Assembly (NCBI GenBank): GCA_016934535.1
Contig: JAFGSQ010000043.1
Location: 1 to 32,035 of the forward strand
Origin: a candidate division WOR-3 bacterium
GTDB lineage: Bacteria > SDB-A
Length of the DNA: 32,035 nt
Direction of reading: 5' to 3'
Below the pieces are notes generated by a model. The model was not told the DNA's origin, ran no database searches, and worked only from the letters and a program-made list of their open reading frames with translations. Both the position numbers and the translations under genes were made by a program. How positions within the stretch are numbered: position 1 is the stretch's first letter; every line of letters starts with the position of its first letter. This document shows positions 23,848-31,213 of the stretch, one piece after another.

Positions 23848-24876
23848 TTAAACCAGTTCGATTTTTCCTTCTCTGTCGGTAAATCTGCCTATCACGCTGG
23901 CTTTCAATCCTTTTTCGACGAGATCTTCCACGTAATTATCAGCATCGGACAGAGCCATAAGAAGCCCTCCCGATGTCTGGGGGTCGAAAAGGACTTCAAA
24001 TATCAGATCGTCAATTCCGCCTTTTATGTTCACGGAGCATCCGTAGGCTTTTTTGTTCGCGCCTCCTCCCCCCGGTATCATGCCCGAAGAGGCGTGATCG
24101 AGTACCGAAGAAAAAAGCGGCACCATACATGTTTGAACCTCAGCTCCCGTACCTGAACCTGTTATCATCTCTCTCAGATGACCAATCAGTCCAAATCCAG
24201 TGACGTCAGTACAGGCGCTCGGAGAATATTTTTTTGCCGTCTCCGCGGCTATCATATTCAGCGCGGACATCGATGCGACTATCTCTTTGACGTCGGCTTC
24301 AGAGGCTATTCCGGCTTTAATGGCGGTAGAAATTATCCCCGTGCCCAGCGGTTTGGTCAAAACCAAACTGTCGCCGGCTTTCGGAGTGTTGTTCTTCCAC
24401 AACTTTGACGGATGGACTTGACCGGTGACGGACAGTCCGAACTTCAGCTCTTTATCTTCTATCGAATGCCCTCCGACAAGAAATGCGCCGGACTCATCCA
24501 CTGCGCTCATAGCACCCTTGAGTATTTCTATGAAAACCGCATTTTCGAGCTTTCCGACGGGGAAACAGCACACGTTCAGGACAGTCAAAGGAGTACCCCC
24601 CATCGCGTATATGTCGCTCAGAGAATTTGCCGCCGCTATTCTGCCAAACGAAAAAGGGTCGTCCACTATAGGAGTAATGAAATCAATGGTCTGAACGAGA
24701 GCCGTCTCTCCGTTAAGGATATAGATGCCGGCGTCGTCAGAGCTCTCAATGCCTGCCAGGACACGGGAGTCTTTTCTGACGTCCAGTTTTTTAAGCAAAT
24801 CGCTCAGGTCGCACGGACCTATTTTGGCAGCTCAACCGGCTTTTTCAGAGAAATTAGTCAAATAGATTTTTTCCAT
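23848..24876 (-). CDS. selD: Selenide, water dikinase (selenophosphate synthetase), Sec-containing, 342 aa
   Basis: ATG at 24876 with AGAGG RBS gives MEKIYLTNFSEKAG-U(TGA 24834-32)-AAKIGP, in frame with DDAG, QTIDFITP, AAAN.LSD.YAMGG, GGHS, DVTGFGL.GH and DPQTSGGLL motifs. Confidence 0.96.
24806..24820 (-). promoter_or_regulatory. Bacterial SECIS-like hairpin of selD
   Basis: Minus strand AGGTC-CGTGC-GACCT; stem starts 11 nt and loop 16 nt after the UGA; G at loop position 2. Confidence 0.75.
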
Positions 24877-24886
24877 TTTTTCCTCT

Positions 24887-25117
24887 TTACAACTTACGGA
24901 TGTCTTTGATTTCTACAGCCGATCGGTTAACTTCCTCCTTCACTTTCTCGTAATCCTCCCACGAAAATCTCAGGCTCGTTCCACAGTCTGAATCCAAATG
25001 GCGCGGAGTAGGAACCAGTTTTGTCCGGACATTCTTTGTACGGAGTATACTCTCAAGTTTGAAAGCCGATGACACCGAATGAAATAACACGACGCCAAAT
25101 AATTCGCTGTCAGGCAC
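24887..25117 (-). CDS. DUF3343 family protein (putative Se/S carrier)
   Basis: FHSVSSA.K.E..L......LVPTPR.L.SDCG..LR motif; likely GTG start at 25117 overlapping the csd stop. Confidence 0.88.
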   Translation of the reverse strand: MPDSELFGVVLFHSVSSAFKLESILRTKNVRTKLVPTPRHLDSDCGTSLRFSWEDYEKVKEEVNRSAVEIKDIRKL

Positions 25118-26279
25118 TTTTACACCTTCCGGCAATTTCAGTGATCGCTTTGACGGTGTAATCAATTTCGTCTTCTCCCGTAAAATACCCCGGCGCCAGG
25201 CGTATAGTTCCGTCCGGATACGTGCCTATGGTCCTGTGGCAGGAAGGACTGCAGTGCAATCCCACTCTCGATTGTATTCCGTATTTTTCGTCGAGTATGC
25301 CTCCCGCTTCGCTTACGCTTACACCGTCTATAGTCACCGAAAAAGTTCCGGACTGCTTTTGAGGCGAAAATGATTTGTAAACTTTCACCTCTTGTATTTC
25401 TTCGAGTTGTTGGGTAAACCTTAAAAATTTTTTTCTGGCGCCGTTTAGAATATTTTTCAAGCCGGTTTTTTTTACCCATCTAAGGCCGGCTAAAAGTCCG
25501 GCCGCTCCAACCGCGTTCATAGTCCCGCTTTCGAGTTTGTCGGGGAAAAAATTGGGCTGACATTCTTCAACAGAAAAACTTCCCGTTCCTCCTCTTTTCA
25601 GCGGCCTCATTTTTTTTTCGTCCACTTTGTTTCCTACGAGAAGAGCTCCGATACCCATGGGGCCGTAGAGCAGTTTATGCCCTGTCACAGCCAGAAGATC
25701 TATGTTCATTTTATGCATGTCAATTTCGAATTCACCCGCGCTCTGAGCGGCATCGACGAGGAAAAGCAATCCGTGTTCACGCGTTATTGCGCCTATCTCT
25801 TCGACCGGCGCAATCGATCCTATAACGTTTGAACAGTGATTTACGATGAACATTTTCGTGTTCTTGTTTATCGCTTTTTCGAAATCCCTGGGATCAATTT
25901 CACCTTGCTCCGAAGCCTGCAACGCAGTGTACTCGACGGATTTTATTTCTCTCAAATAATTAAGAGGCCTCATGACTGCGTTGTGTTCGAGAGAGGTCGT
26001 CACAACGTGGTCTCCCGGATCCAGCAGTCCGAAAAGTACGGTGTTTATTGATTCTGTAGCATTCAATGTAAAAACCACTCTCAACGGATCTTTCAAACCG
26101 AAGAAACCCGCCATCTCTTCGCGGCATTCGTAAGCCATGCGTCCTGCCTCAACCGACATCCGGTGCGAACCCCTCGACGGACTGGATCCGGGATATTCCA
26201 TGAAAGCCCTCACGGCCTCGATAACTTCAGGCGGTTTCGGCCACGAAGTTGCTGAATTGTCCAGATAAATCAGGTTCAT
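25110..26279 (-). CDS. Cysteine desulfurase/selenocysteine lyase-like PLP enzyme (aminotransferase class V)
   Basis: IYLDNSATSWPKP, EHNAV.RP, DAAQSAG, TGHK (PLP lysine), RVGLHC catalytic motif. Confidence 0.93.
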   Translation of the reverse strand: MNLIYLDNSATSWPKPPEVIEAVRAFMEYPGSSPSRGSHRMSVEAGRMAYECREEMAGFFGLKDPLRVVFTLNATESINTVLFGLLDPGDHVVTTSLEHNAVMRPLNYLREIKSVEYTALQASEQGEIDPRDFEKAINKNTKMFIVNHCSNVIGSIAPVEEIGAITREHGLLFLVDAAQSAGEFEIDMHKMNIDLLAVTGHKLLYGPMGIGALLVGNKVDEKKMRPLKRGGTGSFSVEECQPNFFPDKLESGTMNAVGAAGLLAGLRWVKKTGLKNILNGARKKFLRFTQQLEEIQEVKVYKSFSPQKQSGTFSVTIDGVSVSEAGGILDEKYGIQSRVGLHCSPSCHRTIGTYPDGTIRLAPGYFTGEDEIDYTVKAITEIAGRCKSA

Positions 26280-26280
26280 T

Positions 26281-26505
26281 TTATTTCGACAATTTTACCC
26301 TGAATTCGCCCCCGTTTGAAACTTCAATTTCTGTTTTAAATCCTTTTTTTTCAGCCGCCCTCCTGACGTTGTCCCTCGACGTAGTCGTGTCTACCAAGAC
26401 GATTATCGACCCTTCTTCGAATTTCTTTATGGCGGAAAGAGTTTCGAGAACCGGCTGCGGGCATGATAAGCCCCGGGCGTCTACAATCATATCTTCCATT
26501 TTCAT
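26281..26505 (-). CDS. TusA/SirA (YedF-like) sulfur/selenium transferase
   Basis: VDARGLSCPQPV motif, 74 aa; ATGA overlap with the yedE stop. Confidence 0.93.
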   Translation of the reverse strand: MKMEDMIVDARGLSCPQPVLETLSAIKKFEEGSIIVLVDTTTSRDNVRRAAEKKGFKTEIEVSNGGEFRVKLSK

Positions 26506-27632
26506 TCTCCTTTTTTTATTTTCAGGCTTTTCATAGTAAAACCTACAAACAGGCAGAACAACAACCCCATGATTACGGCGTATTTCCCGAAAAGCCCCGG
26601 ACCTCCCACTAAGATCGTCCCTGCTTCGCTCAATTTATCGGGAGACGACGCGAGCAGGAAATTGTGAGAAAATCCCGCGCCGACTATCATGCCCGCGATA
26701 AAAACGCCGGCGTCCTGGTCTCCTTCTCCCGAAAGAAACAACTGCCTTCCCGGGCATCCGCCGGCCAGAGCGAAAGCAAGACCTGCAAGAGCCATGCCGA
26801 GAAAATTCCAGACATGAGATGAATGCGAAACCGGCTGAAGAACGAATCCGGCGTGGAACTGTTTTAATATTATGTTCGTGACCAAAGCGGTTAATACCAG
26901 AGCCGTTACGCCACTCATGAGGTGCCAGTCCTTTATGAGAACGACGTCTCTGACCGCACCCATCGTGCAGAATCTCGACCTCTGGGCTAAAAATCCTATT
27001 AAAAGACCTGCACCCAGGGATATCAGAACAGGTGCGAATATAGAACCGGGCCCGGTTTCGCTGAAGAATATCGGCGCTCCTTCGCCGAAAGAAACTCTGA
27101 AAATGAGAAAAAGAAAAAGAGCTATCATGAAAATAGGAAAAACGAGTCCGCCGGCGTATGAAGTTTTGACGCTTTTCCCAAGAGAATAACCTTTCTTTAA
27201 AAATATTGACCCTGCGACTACTCCTGAAAAAAGTCCCAGTATGCCTGATATTGCGTTGCCGTCGCCGGCTGACAGCCTTAAAAGAGCTCTCCAGGGACAA
27301 CCCAGGAATACCAGAGCACCTATCATCGCGAACATTCCGAGGAAAAATCTTACGAGAGGAGAAGATCCTCCCCTCGGCTTGAATTCCCTGAAAATCAGCG
27401 CCGATGCCATCGCGCCAAGAACGAAGCCTATTATCTCGGGGCGGATGTACTGGACAGCTGCGTTCCTGTGAAGCCCGAGCGCTCCTGCTATGTCCCTTTC
27501 GAAACATGCGACGCAGACTCCCATGTTGGCGGGGTTGCCAAATTTCTGCAGGAGGACTGCGACTAATCCTATTACCGCCCCTGATATCACGATCCCAGGT
27601 TTTGACGAGAAAAATTTCGTTATTCTGGCCAC
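26502..27632 (-). CDS. yedE: YedE family putative selenium transporter (YeeE/YedE)
   Basis: GNP.NMG.C.ACF.RD, GCP (twice), QRSRFC motifs; TM-rich; first gene of the selD operon. Confidence 0.9.
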   Translation of the reverse strand: MARITKFFSSKPGIVISGAVIGLVAVLLQKFGNPANMGVCVACFERDIAGALGLHRNAAVQYIRPEIIGFVLGAMASALIFREFKPRGGSSPLVRFFLGMFAMIGALVFLGCPWRALLRLSAGDGNAISGILGLFSGVVAGSIFLKKGYSLGKSVKTSYAGGLVFPIFMIALFLFLIFRVSFGEGAPIFFSETGPGSIFAPVLISLGAGLLIGFLAQRSRFCTMGAVRDVVLIKDWHLMSGVTALVLTALVTNIILKQFHAGFVLQPVSHSSHVWNFLGMALAGLAFALAGGCPGRQLFLSGEGDQDAGVFIAGMIVGAGFSHNFLLASSPDKLSEAGTILVGGPGLFGKYAVIMGLLFCLFVGFTMKSLKIKKGE

Positions 27633-28003: not shown

Positions 28004-29836
28004 ATGCCGAATCAGAAGCGAAGAAAAGACATACGCAACATAGCGATAATAGCACACGTAGATCACGGAAAGACAACTCTTGTCGACGCTCTGCTCCGTC
28101 AGACCGGAGCTTACGAGTTCAAGGAAGGCGAACATATGATAATGGACGTCAATCCCCTCGAAAGAGAAAGGGGAATTACCATTGTCTCTAAAAATGCCTC
28201 TATACCATACAAAGGAATACAGATAAACATAGTCGACACTCCCGGTCACGCGGACTTCGGAAGCGAGGTCGAAAGAATACTGAAAATGGTCGACGGAGTC
28301 CTGCTTCTTGTGGACGCATTCGAGGGTCCAATGCCTCAAACGAAATTCGTTCTCAAAAAATCTCTCGAACTTCACCTCAAACCGATTCTCGTAATTAACA
28401 AGATAGACAGAAAAAATTGCAGACCTCTCGAGGTCGCCGACATGACATTCGATCTTTTCTGTGAGCTCAACGCCACCGACGAACAGCTCGATTTTCCCAT
28501 AATATATACTTCTGCAAAAAACGGCATTGCCACTCTCGATCTCGACGAAGAAGGAAAAAACATGAAGCCTCTACTTGAAACGATTTTACGCAGAGTGCTT
28601 CCTCCGGTCGCCGATCCTGAAAAACCTTTTCAGATGCTCATCACGATGCTCGATTACGATCCCTACGTCGGAAGATATTCGATAGGAAGAATTTTCCACG
28701 GAAAAATCGAAACAGGCAATCCCGTCGTTCTCGTAAAAACAGACGGGTCGGTGAAACTGTCCAAGATTTCAAAAATACTAAAATACAAAGGCATGAAAAG
28801 AATTGAAGTGCAGTCGGCTCTTGCGGGAGACATTATTCTCGCGGCCGGAATTGACGAAGTCCATGTCGGCGAGACTTTATCTGCACCCGATTACCCTGTA
28901 GCCCTGCCGAAAATCAAAATCGACGAACCGACAATATCAATAGTCTTTTCCCACAACACGAGTCCTCTTTCGGGAAAAGACGGCGGGCGTTTTCTGACAT
29001 CAAGACACATACGGGAAAGGCTCGAATACGAAGCTCTTACTAATGTGGGAATAAAGATAGAGAAATTCGACGGCTCGGAAAAAATAAAAGTTTCCGGCAG
29101 AGGCGAATTGCATTTGTCAATCCTCATCGAGACAATGCGAAGAGAAGGTTACGAATTCGAAGTGTCGGCTCCGGAAGTGATCATGATCAAAATGAACGGC
29201 GACGCTTTGGAACCTGTCGAAGAAGTTCTCGTGGAAATTGACCAGGGTTATCAGGGAAGCGTAATAGAAGCTCTCGGCCCGAGGAGAGCTGAGCTCAAAA
29301 GCATGCAGACCACCTCGATTGGGACATTGCGCCTCGAATTTCTTATACCGACGAGAGGGCTTATGGGATTCAGGAGCGAACTCCTGAGGATGACGCGCGG
29401 AACGGGCACGATGTATCAGAATTTTTACATGTATCAGAAGCACAAAGGTGAAATCCCTCGTCGCAGAGGTCCGACACAGATATCAATGAACGCGGGTAAA
29501 GCTTCCGGTTACGCCCTCTTCAGCCTGCAGGAAAGGGGCGAGATATTCATAAGACCCGGTGACGACGTCTACGAAGGCATGATAATAGGGACAAGTCACA
29601 AAGCGAGGGATCTTGTCGTCAACGCGACAAAGGAAAAAAAACTGACTAACATAAGGGCGGCCGGTTCCGACGAAGCGATAAGACTGACACCGCCGAGGGA
29701 AATAACGCTCGAATTCGCACTCGAATTCATTGAAAATGACGAGCTCCTCGAAATAACACCGAAAAACATACGTTTCAGAAAAAGATTTCTCACGGAAAAC
29801 GAAAGAAAAAGAAACGATCCGGAGAGAAACACTTAA
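28004..29836 (+). CDS. typA: Translational GTPase TypA/BipA
   Basis: RNIAIIAHVDHGKTTLVD, ERERGITI, DTPGHADF, NKID, GRGELHL, KKLTNIRA and ELLEITP motifs. Confidence 0.98.
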   Translation: MPNQKRRKDIRNIAIIAHVDHGKTTLVDALLRQTGAYEFKEGEHMIMDVNPLERERGITIVSKNASIPYKGIQINIVDTPGHADFGSEVERILKMVDGVLLLVDAFEGPMPQTKFVLKKSLELHLKPILVINKIDRKNCRPLEVADMTFDLFCELNATDEQLDFPIIYTSAKNGIATLDLDEEGKNMKPLLETILRRVLPPVADPEKPFQMLITMLDYDPYVGRYSIGRIFHGKIETGNPVVLVKTDGSVKLSKISKILKYKGMKRIEVQSALAGDIILAAGIDEVHVGETLSAPDYPVALPKIKIDEPTISIVFSHNTSPLSGKDGGRFLTSRHIRERLEYEALTNVGIKIEKFDGSEKIKVSGRGELHLSILIETMRREGYEFEVSAPEVIMIKMNGDALEPVEEVLVEIDQGYQGSVIEALGPRRAELKSMQTTSIGTLRLEFLIPTRGLMGFRSELLRMTRGTGTMYQNFYMYQKHKGEIPRRRGPTQISMNAGKASGYALFSLQERGEIFIRPGDDVYEGMIIGTSHKARDLVVNATKEKKLTNIRAAGSDEAIRLTPPREITLEFALEFIENDELLEITPKNIRFRKRFLTENERKRNDPERNT

Positions 29837-29919
29837 GTGTAATCATACTTTATTTTAATTTGAATTTCGTCGAATGAATTCATTTTGATTATCTATTATG
29901 TCGGTATAAAATTGTACTT

Positions 29920-30210
29920 ATGAAAATAATTGAATTCTCCAATCTGAATCTCGTTTCATACATAAAAAAACGAAACGGATCGCTGAACATATCGATTCAA
30001 GCTATTATTCAGGGGTGATGAAACGCCTCGTACGGCCCGGTCGGGTCTCTTGTCGAAAATTATGAAGCAAGCGGAGTACTCGCTTTTGAATACGAAGGAC
30101 TCAGAATCAATATTGAAAAAACCGTGATGGAAAAATATTCAGAAAACGGAACACTGAAGTTTTACACAGACAATTTCGGCTGGACCGAGATTTTTTTTTC
30201 AGAAATTTGA
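29920..30210 (+). CDS. Candidate small selenoprotein (96 aa) with tandem UGA-UGA (G-U-U), HesB-like/CC-motif type
   Basis: Single frame from ATG 29920 to TGA 30210, interrupted only by TGA TGA at 30016-30021; fills the typA/GTPase gap; SECIS-like hairpin directly downstream of the UGAs. Confidence 0.72.
30034..30047 (+). promoter_or_regulatory. SECIS-like hairpin downstream of the tandem UGA
   Basis: GGCCC-GGTC-GGGTC (4 G-C pairs plus 1 G-U); loop begins with G, 17 nt after the second and 20 nt after the first UGA; GC-rich island in an AT-rich gene. Confidence 0.62.
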
Positions 30211-30238
30211 GATGAGAGGTTTTTACAGGAACACTTTT

Positions 30239-31213
30239 TCACAAGTGGAGCTCGACTACGTCTCCGTCCGACAGAGAATGGTCTCTCTGCACCATCTGTC
30301 CGTCATAAACGCCTTTTCCCCATACTTTTGCCATTTTCAGGTTCTTTCTGAAATCCTGATGAACGGTTACGGCGAAATCCTCTATCGTAGCGCCTTTTTT
30401 GAGGATGAAAGGTGTGGACATGTCGGCATGGAAACCAGGTTTTTTGGAATACACTCTTATGCAATCGAGTTCCCGGAAAAATCTTTCTTTAATACACTCA
30501 ATATTCCATCCTGTTTTTGATGAAACAGGAACTGATGCGAAAGGGCAATCGTAAAGTTTTTTGAATATCTCGTAATCTTCCGCGAAATCGTCACCATCGT
30601 GTTTGTTGACAATAAGTATAAATTTGGATTTGTGTGATTTTTTCACGTAATCATCTCCCACAGGCTCAATTCTGTGTTCTTTGAGTATCTCGAGGGATTC
30701 GGCTGTCTGCGTGAAAGGATCGCCCTCCAGATCTACGACCAGGGCTATTAAGTCCGCTCTTTTCAAAAGGTCGAAAAGCTGAGGTTCGACGAAATCACGA
30801 GTGAGAGGAGGAGTATCAACCAACTGTATGAGTATGTCTTTATATTTCATCATACCGGGAAGAGGGCTCCATGTTGTGTGGGGAGAAGAATTTATTTCAG
30901 GTTTTGCGTGGGTGAGGACAGACAATAGTGATGATTTCCCGGTGTTCGGAGCGCCGGCTAATGCTATTTGTCCGGCTCCTTCTTTCTTTAAAGAAAAAAG
31001 CGACTCGTGCCTTGATACATTTTTTTTAGAATGACGGGCTTCTTTGAACTTCGAGAGTTTTTTTCTAAGATCGGCTCTGAGTTTGTCGGTACCTTTGTGT
31101 TTGGGGACAGTGCCAATGAGTTCCTGCAGCAGAGTTATCTTTTCCTGCAGGTCCAGAGCTTCTTTGTATCTTTTTTCAGCCTCAAAATACTCTGGAGGAA
31201 GATTTGTAGGCAT
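30239..31213 (-). CDS. OBG/DRG-like GTPase with C-terminal TGS domain
   Basis: MPTNLPPEY..PKHKGT N-terminus, GAPNTGKS, DTPP, NKHD, TGS segment HQDF...AKVWG...L.DGDVVELH. Confidence 0.9.
   Translation of the reverse strand: MPTNLPPEYFEAEKRYKEALDLQEKITLLQELIGTVPKHKGTDKLRADLRKKLSKFKEARHSKKNVSRHESLFSLKKEGAGQIALAGAPNTGKSSLLSVLTHAKPEINSSPHTTWSPLPGMMKYKDILIQLVDTPPLTRDFVEPQLFDLLKRADLIALVVDLEGDPFTQTAESLEILKEHRIEPVGDDYVKKSHKSKFILIVNKHDGDDFAEDYEIFKKLYDCPFASVPVSSKTGWNIECIKERFFRELDCIRVYSKKPGFHADMSTPFILKKGATIEDFAVTVHQDFRKNLKMAKVWGKGVYDGQMVQRDHSLSDGDVVELHL

Follow-up and report, generated by a model that had tools for sequence, protein, structure and literature searches.

We propose that a small gene of a candidate division WOR-3 bacterium is real and encodes a soluble protein of about 96 residues in which two directly adjacent UGA codons are both decoded as selenocysteine (Sec, U) by SelB and tRNA-Sec, a reading to which we assign a probability of roughly 0.78. 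The gene lies in the 32,035-nucleotide (nt) stretch of DNA that was analysed (the window; GCA_016934535.1, contig JAFGSQ010000043.1), and is referred to below as the UU gene and its product as the UU protein. Because an open frame of such length is unremarkable by itself, comparative evidence must carry the case. Judged from the sequences at hand, conservation in 12 sequences from at least three lineages, substitution of the coding type before and after the UGAs and a hairpin with a GGUC loop downstream of them lift the frame above chance.

A conserved frame with two adjacent UGA codons

The original prediction, made from the letters of the window, had described one continuous frame in the gap between typA and a TGS-domain GTPase gene, with TGA TGA as codons 33 and 34, 62 codons after them and 28 nt to the convergent gene, and the frame was recovered exactly so, with the same translation. 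The ATG is followed by 31 sense codons, the last of which is Gly32 (30013-30015), and the two TGAs by 62 sense codons before the stop (Table 1). Under genetic code table 11 the region is broken into open reading frame (ORF) pieces of 32, 25 and 28 residues. Upstream, typA ends at 29836; downstream, 28 nt separate the stop of the UU gene from that of the convergent ORF, which carries the Pfam domains MMR_HSR1 and TGS.

A six-frame search of 41 genomes recovered the protein in all three other genomes of the genus, in each case as a match to residues 1-96 at 48-56% identity (50-58% in the alignment) with exactly two in-frame TGAs, and returned only noise beyond the genus (E > 0.03). The gene is present in all four genomes of the genus and in neither of the two genomes from other genera of the phylum, which is represented by six genomes in our collection. 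The motif ..[RQ]-G-TGA-TGA-[NS]-A-[ST]-Y-G-P-V-G-S-L.. is shared by the four genus sequences, and gene order is partly kept, with typA upstream in G002 and G003 and the convergent GTPase gene downstream in G001, G002 and G003.

Further homologues were recovered from metagenomes with a DNA pattern in which each of the two codons could be TGA, TGC or TGT and Y-G-P-V-G could be encoded by any synonymous codons. Thirteen stretches matched, seven of which are true homologues (L024, L025, L026, L030, L031, L032 and L035; 61-69% guanine plus cytosine, GC), and all seven have TGA TGA followed by the same 17-nt core as the genus. The other six (L023, L027, L028, L029, L033 and L034) were excluded, as their frames end after a few codons or they lack similarity past the pattern. 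Four complete genes from one high-GC clade (L030, L031, L032 and L035) have an ATG 31 codons before the Gly codon and a strong ribosome-binding site of the GGAGG type ahead of it; in L026 the start lies 38 codons before the Gly. A profile of nine full-length UU proteins searched against 401 genomes added one carrier from another family (G027, E 1.6e-5), also with two TGAs, in the context ..I-E-G-U-U-H-A-A-L-R-L-S-G-R-M.., while a match in G197 with one TGA and one TAA (E 9e-4) was noise on inspection. In total, an in-frame G-TGA-TGA was found in 12 sequences, comprising four genus genomes, seven high-GC contigs and one genome of another family, and protein identity between clades is about 35%.

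Three homologues have cysteines at both UGA columns. These are P0002 (G-C-C-N-A), a protein of 103 residues, and L040 and L041 (P-C-C). P0002 was the sole meaningful match of a profile search with a four-sequence alignment over 1.84 billion representatives, the other three of four matches at E <= 0.001 being repeat proteins. A pattern search of genome contigs with two patterns returned only the G003 record, one of the two patterns having encoded Cys-Cys, which could not match TGA. In public protein sets, all 12 matches are C-terminal fragments of 51-69 residues that start after the UGAs and are labelled 'hypothetical protein'.

Substitutions among the four genus sequences follow the codon structure on both sides of the UGAs. 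The ratio of non-synonymous to synonymous change (pN/pS) is 0.31-0.55 over codons 1-32 and 0.43-0.51 over codons 46-95, with pS near saturation. Third codon positions are the most variable on both sides, with 19, 10 and 27 of 32 columns varying at first, second and third positions over codons 1-32, and 29, 25 and 43 of 49 over codons 46-95. Insertions and deletions come in multiples of three, the genus alignment holding a single one-codon indel, and no further stop or frameshift occurs in any full-length copy. A contig from run X2, an independent wastewater study, spans 30007-30204 with 19 substitutions and keeps TGATGA without any difference at 30016-30021, which excludes an assembly error. 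In the same contig, one base is inserted and another deleted 5 nt away (30137-30142), and the two changes together restore the frame, a small sign of selection on it. Most of the checks that the original prediction had proposed were run, and each of these came out in its favour: homologues can be aligned before and after the UGAs, with TGA TGA in 12 and Cys-Cys in P0002 and L040/L041, the downstream part is under purifying selection, and a misassembly of the two codons is ruled out by an independent contig.

A short hairpin downstream of the UGAs

A 17-nt stretch that begins nine nucleotides after the second UGA is identical in all 11 homologues of the main type, and all five fully synonymous third positions within it are frozen. 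The adjacent Gly codon before the TGAs, in contrast, takes all four forms (GGG, GGC, GGT and GGA) in different species. Since the stretch is identical in 11 sequences at about 35% protein identity while this Gly codon is free to vary, we regard it as constrained as nucleic acid. The variation of this Gly codon among species led us to reject ribosome hopping from it.

The stretch contains a mini-helix resembling a selenocysteine insertion sequence (SECIS), which lies inside the coding sequence (CDS) over codons 39-44 and presents a GGUC tetraloop (Table 1). A C-G pair closes the stem in 10 of 11 aligned sequences, and other homologues gain one or two pairs beyond the stem of the window. The RNAalifold consensus is a hairpin of six pairs, two of which show compensatory changes, both in L047, the gene of G027. 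There the hairpin (GGCUGUCC / GGUC / GGAUGGCU) has eight pairs and is placed 4 nt further on in a different codon register, with the UGAs 27 and 24 nt from the loop (all distances to loops run from the first base of the UGA to the first base of the loop). No GGUC hairpin is present in the Cys-Cys homologues L040 and L041. In three of the five protein fragments P0011-P0015, namely P0012, P0013 and P0015, Tyr38 is replaced by Asp, Phe or Arg, which alters bases just 5' of the stem.

Selenocysteine machinery and other selenoprotein genes

The genome encodes selA, selB, a tRNA-Sec with the anticodon UCA and a Sec-type selD, so that the machinery which the original prediction had asked about was found in full. 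Its statement that the nearby selD is of the Sec type also held, as an in-frame TGA was seen in that gene at 24834-24832 (..EKAG-U-AAKIGP). This selD belongs to a selenium-utilisation cluster on the minus strand (23848-27632), together with genes for a class-V aminotransferase and a YedE/Sulf_transp protein; this cluster stops 2.3 kb short of the UU gene, on its upstream side. The gene for tRNA-Sec is divided between the contig ends C11:3-82 (-) and C67:1-75 (+), which overlap in reverse complement; since the ends overlap at tRNA-Sec, C11 and C67 join and selC lies directly upstream of selA-selB. SelA was present in all five genomes checked (G001, G002, G003, G027 and G005), four of which carry the UU gene, whereas G005 does not.

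GGUC tetraloops closed by at least five pairs occur 27 times on both strands of the 2.23 Mb genome. A TGA lies 19-24 nt upstream in eight of these 27 hairpins against 3.2 expected, and the eight include the genes for the peroxiredoxin PrxU and for three proteins with a C-U-G motif. From the distances in the PrxU, FdhA, C-U-G and selD genes (Table 1), both UGAs of the UU gene, at 23 and 20 nt, fall inside the range that this organism uses. Of the 31 sites described below as matching the UU gene in their open flanks, the UU gene is the sole one with a GGUC-loop hairpin downstream.

The three C-U-G proteins are paralogues of about 630 residues each (L074-L076), with an N-terminal hydrophobic segment and, in two of them, a type IX secretion system (T9SS) C-terminal sorting domain; their GGUC hairpins have 7-8 pairs. 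Only the T9SS tail is recognised by an NCBIfam model, and the three may form an undescribed family of secreted selenoproteins. No NCBIfam family was matched either by two more candidate selenoprotein ORFs, L078 and L077. In one of these the site is F-U-S-G-C (UxxC), and a GGUC hairpin follows the TGA at 24 nt; in the other it is L-C-U-G-G, and the hairpin is a different one.

Protein family and predicted fold

The window protein has no match in Pfam, PF01521 (IscA/HesB) included, and none in NCBIfam at E <= 10. Its homologues connect it to NF041239 (Moor_selen_rel), the CC/Se motif family. With U read as C, UU proteins score 44.2, 44.1, 40.9, 39.4, 25.8 and 14.1 bits against this model; three of nine pass its cut-off of 40 bits, and the genus maximum is 14.1 bits. 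An alignment of UU proteins compared with NF041239-type members in hhalign gave a probability of 97.4% (E 1.2e-11, 64 columns) and placed U33 on the only invariant Cys/Sec column of those members. Among the 401 genomes, 11 matches to NF041239 were found in six genomes, six of them without a stop, five with one TGA (C-x-x-U) and none with two. Like the UU protein, NF041239 members have about 90-100 residues, a Pro a few residues after the invariant Cys/Sec and the same layout of later strands, and some have Cys-Cys; unlike it, the sampled members carry no or one TGA. The single-Sec members also have other hairpins than the UU gene, with AGUUA or UAGA loops at 26-29 nt.

UU homologues additionally gave faint NCBIfam hits to IscA, HesB and SufA models (E 0.04-0.08, far below the cut-offs). 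An AlphaFold2 (AF2) model built from a nine-sequence alignment is a single compact domain with a predicted local distance difference test score (pLDDT) of 86.8 and a predicted template modelling score (pTM) of 0.78. Its pLDDT is 93 and 91 over the N-terminal 20 residues, and the lowest block (69) covers residues 31-40, including the U-U site. In Foldseek, ranks 1-9 were all IscA, SufA, HesB-type or DsrR chains (probability 0.96-1.00, E 5.6e-3 to 7.8e-2, TM 0.44-0.51), and in VIA ranks 1-7 had the same fold type with Z 5.2-3.6, the next row standing at Z 2.2. A search of PDB sequences with the UU profile gave no hits at E <= 10. Aligned by hhalign with 13 IscA proteins from the genomes, G-U-U-x-A-x-Y falls on G-G-C-S-G-x-S-Y, such that U33 corresponds to the invariant first Cys and Y38 to the invariant Tyr. 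The C-terminal C-G-C-G ligand motif, invariant in these 13 proteins, is absent from all nine UU proteins, so of the three IscA ligand Cys positions the first alone is occupied, by what would be Sec.

The resemblance to CC/Se-motif and HesB/IscA-like proteins suggested by the original prediction is thereby backed by NCBIfam hits, hhalign and fold searches. Since the window protein itself has no hit and the genus reaches at most 14.1 bits against the 40-bit cut-off, we file the UU protein as a probable divergent relative of NF041239 with a predicted IscA-like fold, not as a member by the curated cut-off. PF01521 at E <= 1e-8 was found in none of the six genomes of the phylum, compared with 17 of 55 other sampled genomes, and the phylum may be without a canonical A-type Fe-S carrier.

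Proposed decoding and alternative explanations

The claim that both UGAs encode Sec is supported by homologues, coding signature and Sec machinery, and we infer the following sequence of events. The GGUC-tetraloop hairpin would bind SelB-GTP-Sec-tRNA(Sec). With UGA1 in the A site, the loop would be 23 nt away, the distance found in three other candidate selenoprotein genes of this genome; one translocation of 3 nt would bring UGA2 into the A site with the loop 20 nt away, as in the PrxU gene, and a second SelB ternary complex would load on the same hairpin before release factor 2 (RF2) terminates. The product would carry G-Sec-Sec in the loop that joins strand 2 to strand 3 in an IscA/HesB-like fold, with Sec33 at the position of the first cluster-ligand Cys. 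Taking these elements together, we find it reasonably probable that this is the first natural prokaryotic protein with directly adjacent Sec-Sec, made by two SelB complexes using one very short SECIS hairpin in turn, and that it bears a vicinal diselenide (an eight-membered ring) or two-selenium clamp, carried by an IscA-like scaffold whose other ligands are lost.

Several observations weigh against this interpretation. To our knowledge, two successive Sec insertions from one hairpin have no precedent, and Sec insertion at E. coli fdhF is inefficient. The stem in the window has only five pairs, T30048 giving a C-U mismatch at the next position; folding of four 66-nt segments was no better than that of shuffled sequences (z = 0.10, -0.91, 0.49 and -0.76), and the minimum-energy fold of the G003 sequence lacks the hairpin. 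As the hairpin is invariant within the main clade, covariation rests on the single distant sequence L047, and an Rfam scan of 29850-30260 gave noise, with E >= 0.72 and far below gathering scores. The UU protein diverges much faster than its neighbour, TypA being 86-88% identical across the species of the genus against 50-58% for the UU protein. The window protein reaches no curated family cut-off, the fold scores are modest (VIA warns that Z < 8 may reflect a common arrangement only), and the comparison with the 13 IscA proteins has a low probability of 55% (E 1.2e-4). The genomic context, too, differs between lineages. In fdhF, as set out in the part of PMC8659212 drawn on here, a single UGA is followed by the upper stem-loop at a fixed 11 nt.

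Among the alternatives, we consider it unlikely that one Sec only is inserted, either because tRNA(Sec), having decoded UGA1 and entered the P site, re-pairs with UGA2 in a +3 slip or because one of the UGAs is read by a near-cognate tRNA (Trp or Cys). Such a slip would be eased by the identity of the two codons, which makes P-site re-pairing perfect, and the second insertion demands a fresh SelB complex and should be slow; UGA2 is also 1 nt closer to its loop than the UGAs of the FdhA genes, though its 20 nt equal those of PrxU. A single UGA would nevertheless give the same product with less termination, which leaves selection of the pair unexplained. All 12 homologues retain the two TGAs, in lineages at about 35% identity or less, even though the search pattern would catch TGC and TGT, and the Cys homologues carry two cysteines at the same columns. 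Still less probable, in our view, is a tandem UGA that serves as the reinforced stop of a 32-residue peptide, followed by either an independent ORF or an RNA element such as a regulatory hairpin or a terminator. Tandem stops are known in bacteria, gene callers split the UU genes, and the public fragments of 51-69 residues begin after the UGAs. Against this, no start codon is conserved after the UGAs (the GTG chosen by gene callers exists only in the high-GC clade, the genus having Ser/Thr at this position, codon 37), the downstream frame is always that of the upstream part with in-frame indels only, the predicted single domain uses both halves, the Cys-Cys homologues are continuous proteins, and the hairpin is not followed by a run of T.

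TGA is an ordinary stop in this organism, since the UU ORF itself ends in TGA and many genes have a TGA followed by a Shine-Dalgarno sequence and ATG. This fits a reinforced stop and at the same time tells against a code of the table 4 or 25 type, in which UGA would be an ordinary sense codon of the genus and no Sec would be involved. The frame would be open if TGA stood for any residue, but table 11 leaves the long ORFs of the window unbroken, unrelated high-GC organisms have the same motif, and the TGAs of FdhA, PrxU and SelD stand at known Sec positions with hairpins after them; we regard a changed code as scarcely credible. That the frame is open by chance, or belongs to a pseudogene decaying between two genes, is very improbable as well, despite the absence of Pfam and NCBIfam hits for the window protein. 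The open frame alone is not beyond chance: the probability of 62 open codons in the base composition of the region is 0.010, and of 1515 TGATGA sites genome-wide, 31 are preceded by at least 31 open codons and followed by at least 62. What chance or decay does not account for is that 12 homologues in at least three lineages keep the frame, the two TGAs and the GGUC hairpin, that pN/pS is below 0.6 on both sides with no other stop or frameshift in full-length copies, and that the two single-base indels of the X2 contig compensate each other.

Genomic context and possible function

In the window, the UU gene stands alone between typA and the GTPase gene, 2.3-6 kb from the YedE-like, NifS-like and Sec-type selD genes. 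A promoter-like site found by a consensus scan (TTGATT, 16-nt spacer, TAAAAT) ends 8 nt before the ATG; the scan gave two sites, where shuffled sequences would yield 1.1. The four genus genomes show no Shine-Dalgarno sequence ahead of the UU gene, and the site might give a leaderless or nearly leaderless mRNA. At the other end of the gene, a terminator-like hairpin of eight pairs followed by nine T lies within the last 13 codons, before the stop, and was dismissed as it is inside the 3' end of the ORF and is not conserved in G001, G002 and G003. Two metatranscriptome runs, taken from the study to which the probable source run belongs, had no match on the UU stretch, which has no bearing either way.

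In the high-GC clade, the UU gene is preceded by a conserved gene, seen in L026 and L032 (39% identical), whose product is a lipoprotein of some 150 residues with a lipobox, a C-x-C motif and no Pfam hit. In L032 this lipoprotein gene runs into the UU start codon, and in L026 it stops 4 nt short of it. A DsbD/CcdA-type membrane protein is encoded beside the UU and lipoprotein genes in L026 and L035, and in L026 a gene for an ArsR-family regulator lies downstream and one for an ArsP-type permease is divergent. The neighbours of the UU gene in G027 encode a cytochrome c assembly protein and a c7-type cytochrome. Gene content thus weakly suggests thiol redox and metal or metalloid handling as a common thread. 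Our preferred hypothesis is that the Sec pair would act as a vicinal diselenol/diselenide redox couple, or as a two-selenium chelator of a soft metal, a metalloid or selenium.

Table 1 Features of the UU gene, its surroundings and other loci considered in the text. Locations without a prefix are window positions; L and C denote loci and contigs outside it.
Feature	Location	Strand	Details
CDS of the UU protein, 96 residues	29920-30210	+	ATG at 29920; stop TGA 30208-30210; Sec (predicted) at 33 and 34
First in-frame UGA, codon 33	30016-30018	+	23 nt before first loop base of hairpin
Second in-frame UGA, codon 34	30019-30021	+	20 nt before first loop base; 12 nt between UGA2 and stem
Conserved 17-nt stretch	30031-30047	+	TACGGCCCGGTCGGGTC; codons Y-G-P-V-G-S
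SECIS-like mini-helix	30034-30047	+	5' arm GGCCC 30034-30038; loop GGUC 30039-30042; 3' arm GGGUC 30043-30047
Promoter-like site	29885-29912	+	Consensus scan
Terminator-like hairpin and T-run	30172-30200	+	Hairpin 30172-30192
TGS-domain GTPase ORF	30239-31213	-	Convergent
selD, Sec-type	23848-24876	-	19 nt to loop; loop CGUGC
Class-V aminotransferase, NifS- or Sec-lyase-like	25110-26279	-	Next to selD
YedE/Sulf_transp protein	26502-27632	-	Near selD
PrxU peroxiredoxin			20 nt to loop; NF040737, 422 bits (cut-off 270)
FdhA, two genes			21 nt to loop; GGUCU loop; TIGR01591, 840 and 898 bits
C-U-G paralogue	C19:5522-7408	+	Secreted (predicted); 23 nt to loop
C-U-G paralogue	C19:7527-9407	+	Secreted (predicted); 23 nt to loop
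C-U-G paralogue	C18:74714-76645	-	Secreted (predicted); 23 nt to loop
Candidate selenoprotein ORF L078	C43:8213-9169	+	
Candidate selenoprotein ORF L077	C11:208-1392	+	
C-x-C lipoprotein gene	L026:1562-2014	-	
C-x-C lipoprotein gene	L032:333-797	+	
Neighbours of lipoprotein/UU genes	L026:2030-2731; L026:569-1021; L026:2690-4159; L035:2898-3479		

Relation to known systems and implications

The family and the machinery are very probably known ones, and what is new is very probably the motif and the way in which one SECIS is used. The E. coli fdhF element likewise has a GGUC apical loop. As in fdhF, the hairpin of the UU gene is located inside the CDS just 3' of a UGA, 12 nt after UGA2 compared with about 11 nt, whereas in the UU gene one hairpin faces two adjacent UGAs, its stem is short (5-7 pairs) and no bulged U is evident. 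IscA, SufA and HesB (PF01521) provide the best fold matches of the UU protein, modest as these are, and the first ligand Cys with which Sec33 is aligned; the UU protein differs from them by the missing C-terminal C-G-C-G and by a second Sec directly after the first. Two redox-active or metal-binding sulphur or selenium atoms are also held close together in UxxU and UxxxxU selenoproteins, in the UxxU diselenide of eukaryotic SelL, in the Cys-Sec pair of thioredoxin reductase and in the vicinal Cys-Cys of MerA and MerT. The two UGA codons of a UxxU protein are spaced by 9 nt, unlike the contiguous pair of the UU gene.

A review of May 2026 (PMC13188914) lists 119 prokaryotic selenoprotein families in its Table 1; none of these 119 entries has a UU motif or directly adjacent Sec, two-Sec families being given there as UxxU, UxxxxU and similar, and NF041239 as CxxU with one Sec. 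The same table gives the motif UxGP for the HesB-like selenoprotein (TIGR01911 / NF038090), whose Sec in a G-U motif is comparable to that of the UU protein and would be positionally equivalent. The passages of the Haft preprint (10.1101/2022.07.06.499078) drawn on here describe CU and TU sites, not UU, and a search by terms alone in the texts on deep-Sep (PMC12013277) and BSepDB (PMC13326102) gave nothing relevant. Our literature search found no paper describing a natural bacterial Sec-Sec, with supplementary files, which lay outside it, possibly listing UU cases.

If both UGAs are decoded as proposed, the distance between UGA and SECIS in bacteria would have a working window of at least 3 nt, and reloading of SelB would have to outrun RF2. 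The UGA-UGA pair with its mini-helix of 14-16 nt would then be a test system for the distance tolerance of SelB, for reloading within one translocation and for the avoidance of double termination. Selenoprotein finders that halt at the second UGA will miss proteins of the UU class. A vicinal Sec-Sec, as a strained diselenide or a bidentate selenolate ligand, would represent new protein chemistry of relevance to redox enzymology and selenoprotein engineering. For the organism, the UU protein may be a redox relay of very low potential or a carrier of selenium or of a soft metal or metalloid. Several bacterial selenoproteins with two chalcogens have been tied to metal or metalloid handling in the sections of PMC13188914 that treat them, and the neighbours in the high-GC clade (a CcdA/DsbD-like protein, the CxC thioredoxin-like lipoprotein, ArsR and ArsP) hint at such a redox or metal(loid) role for the UU protein as well.

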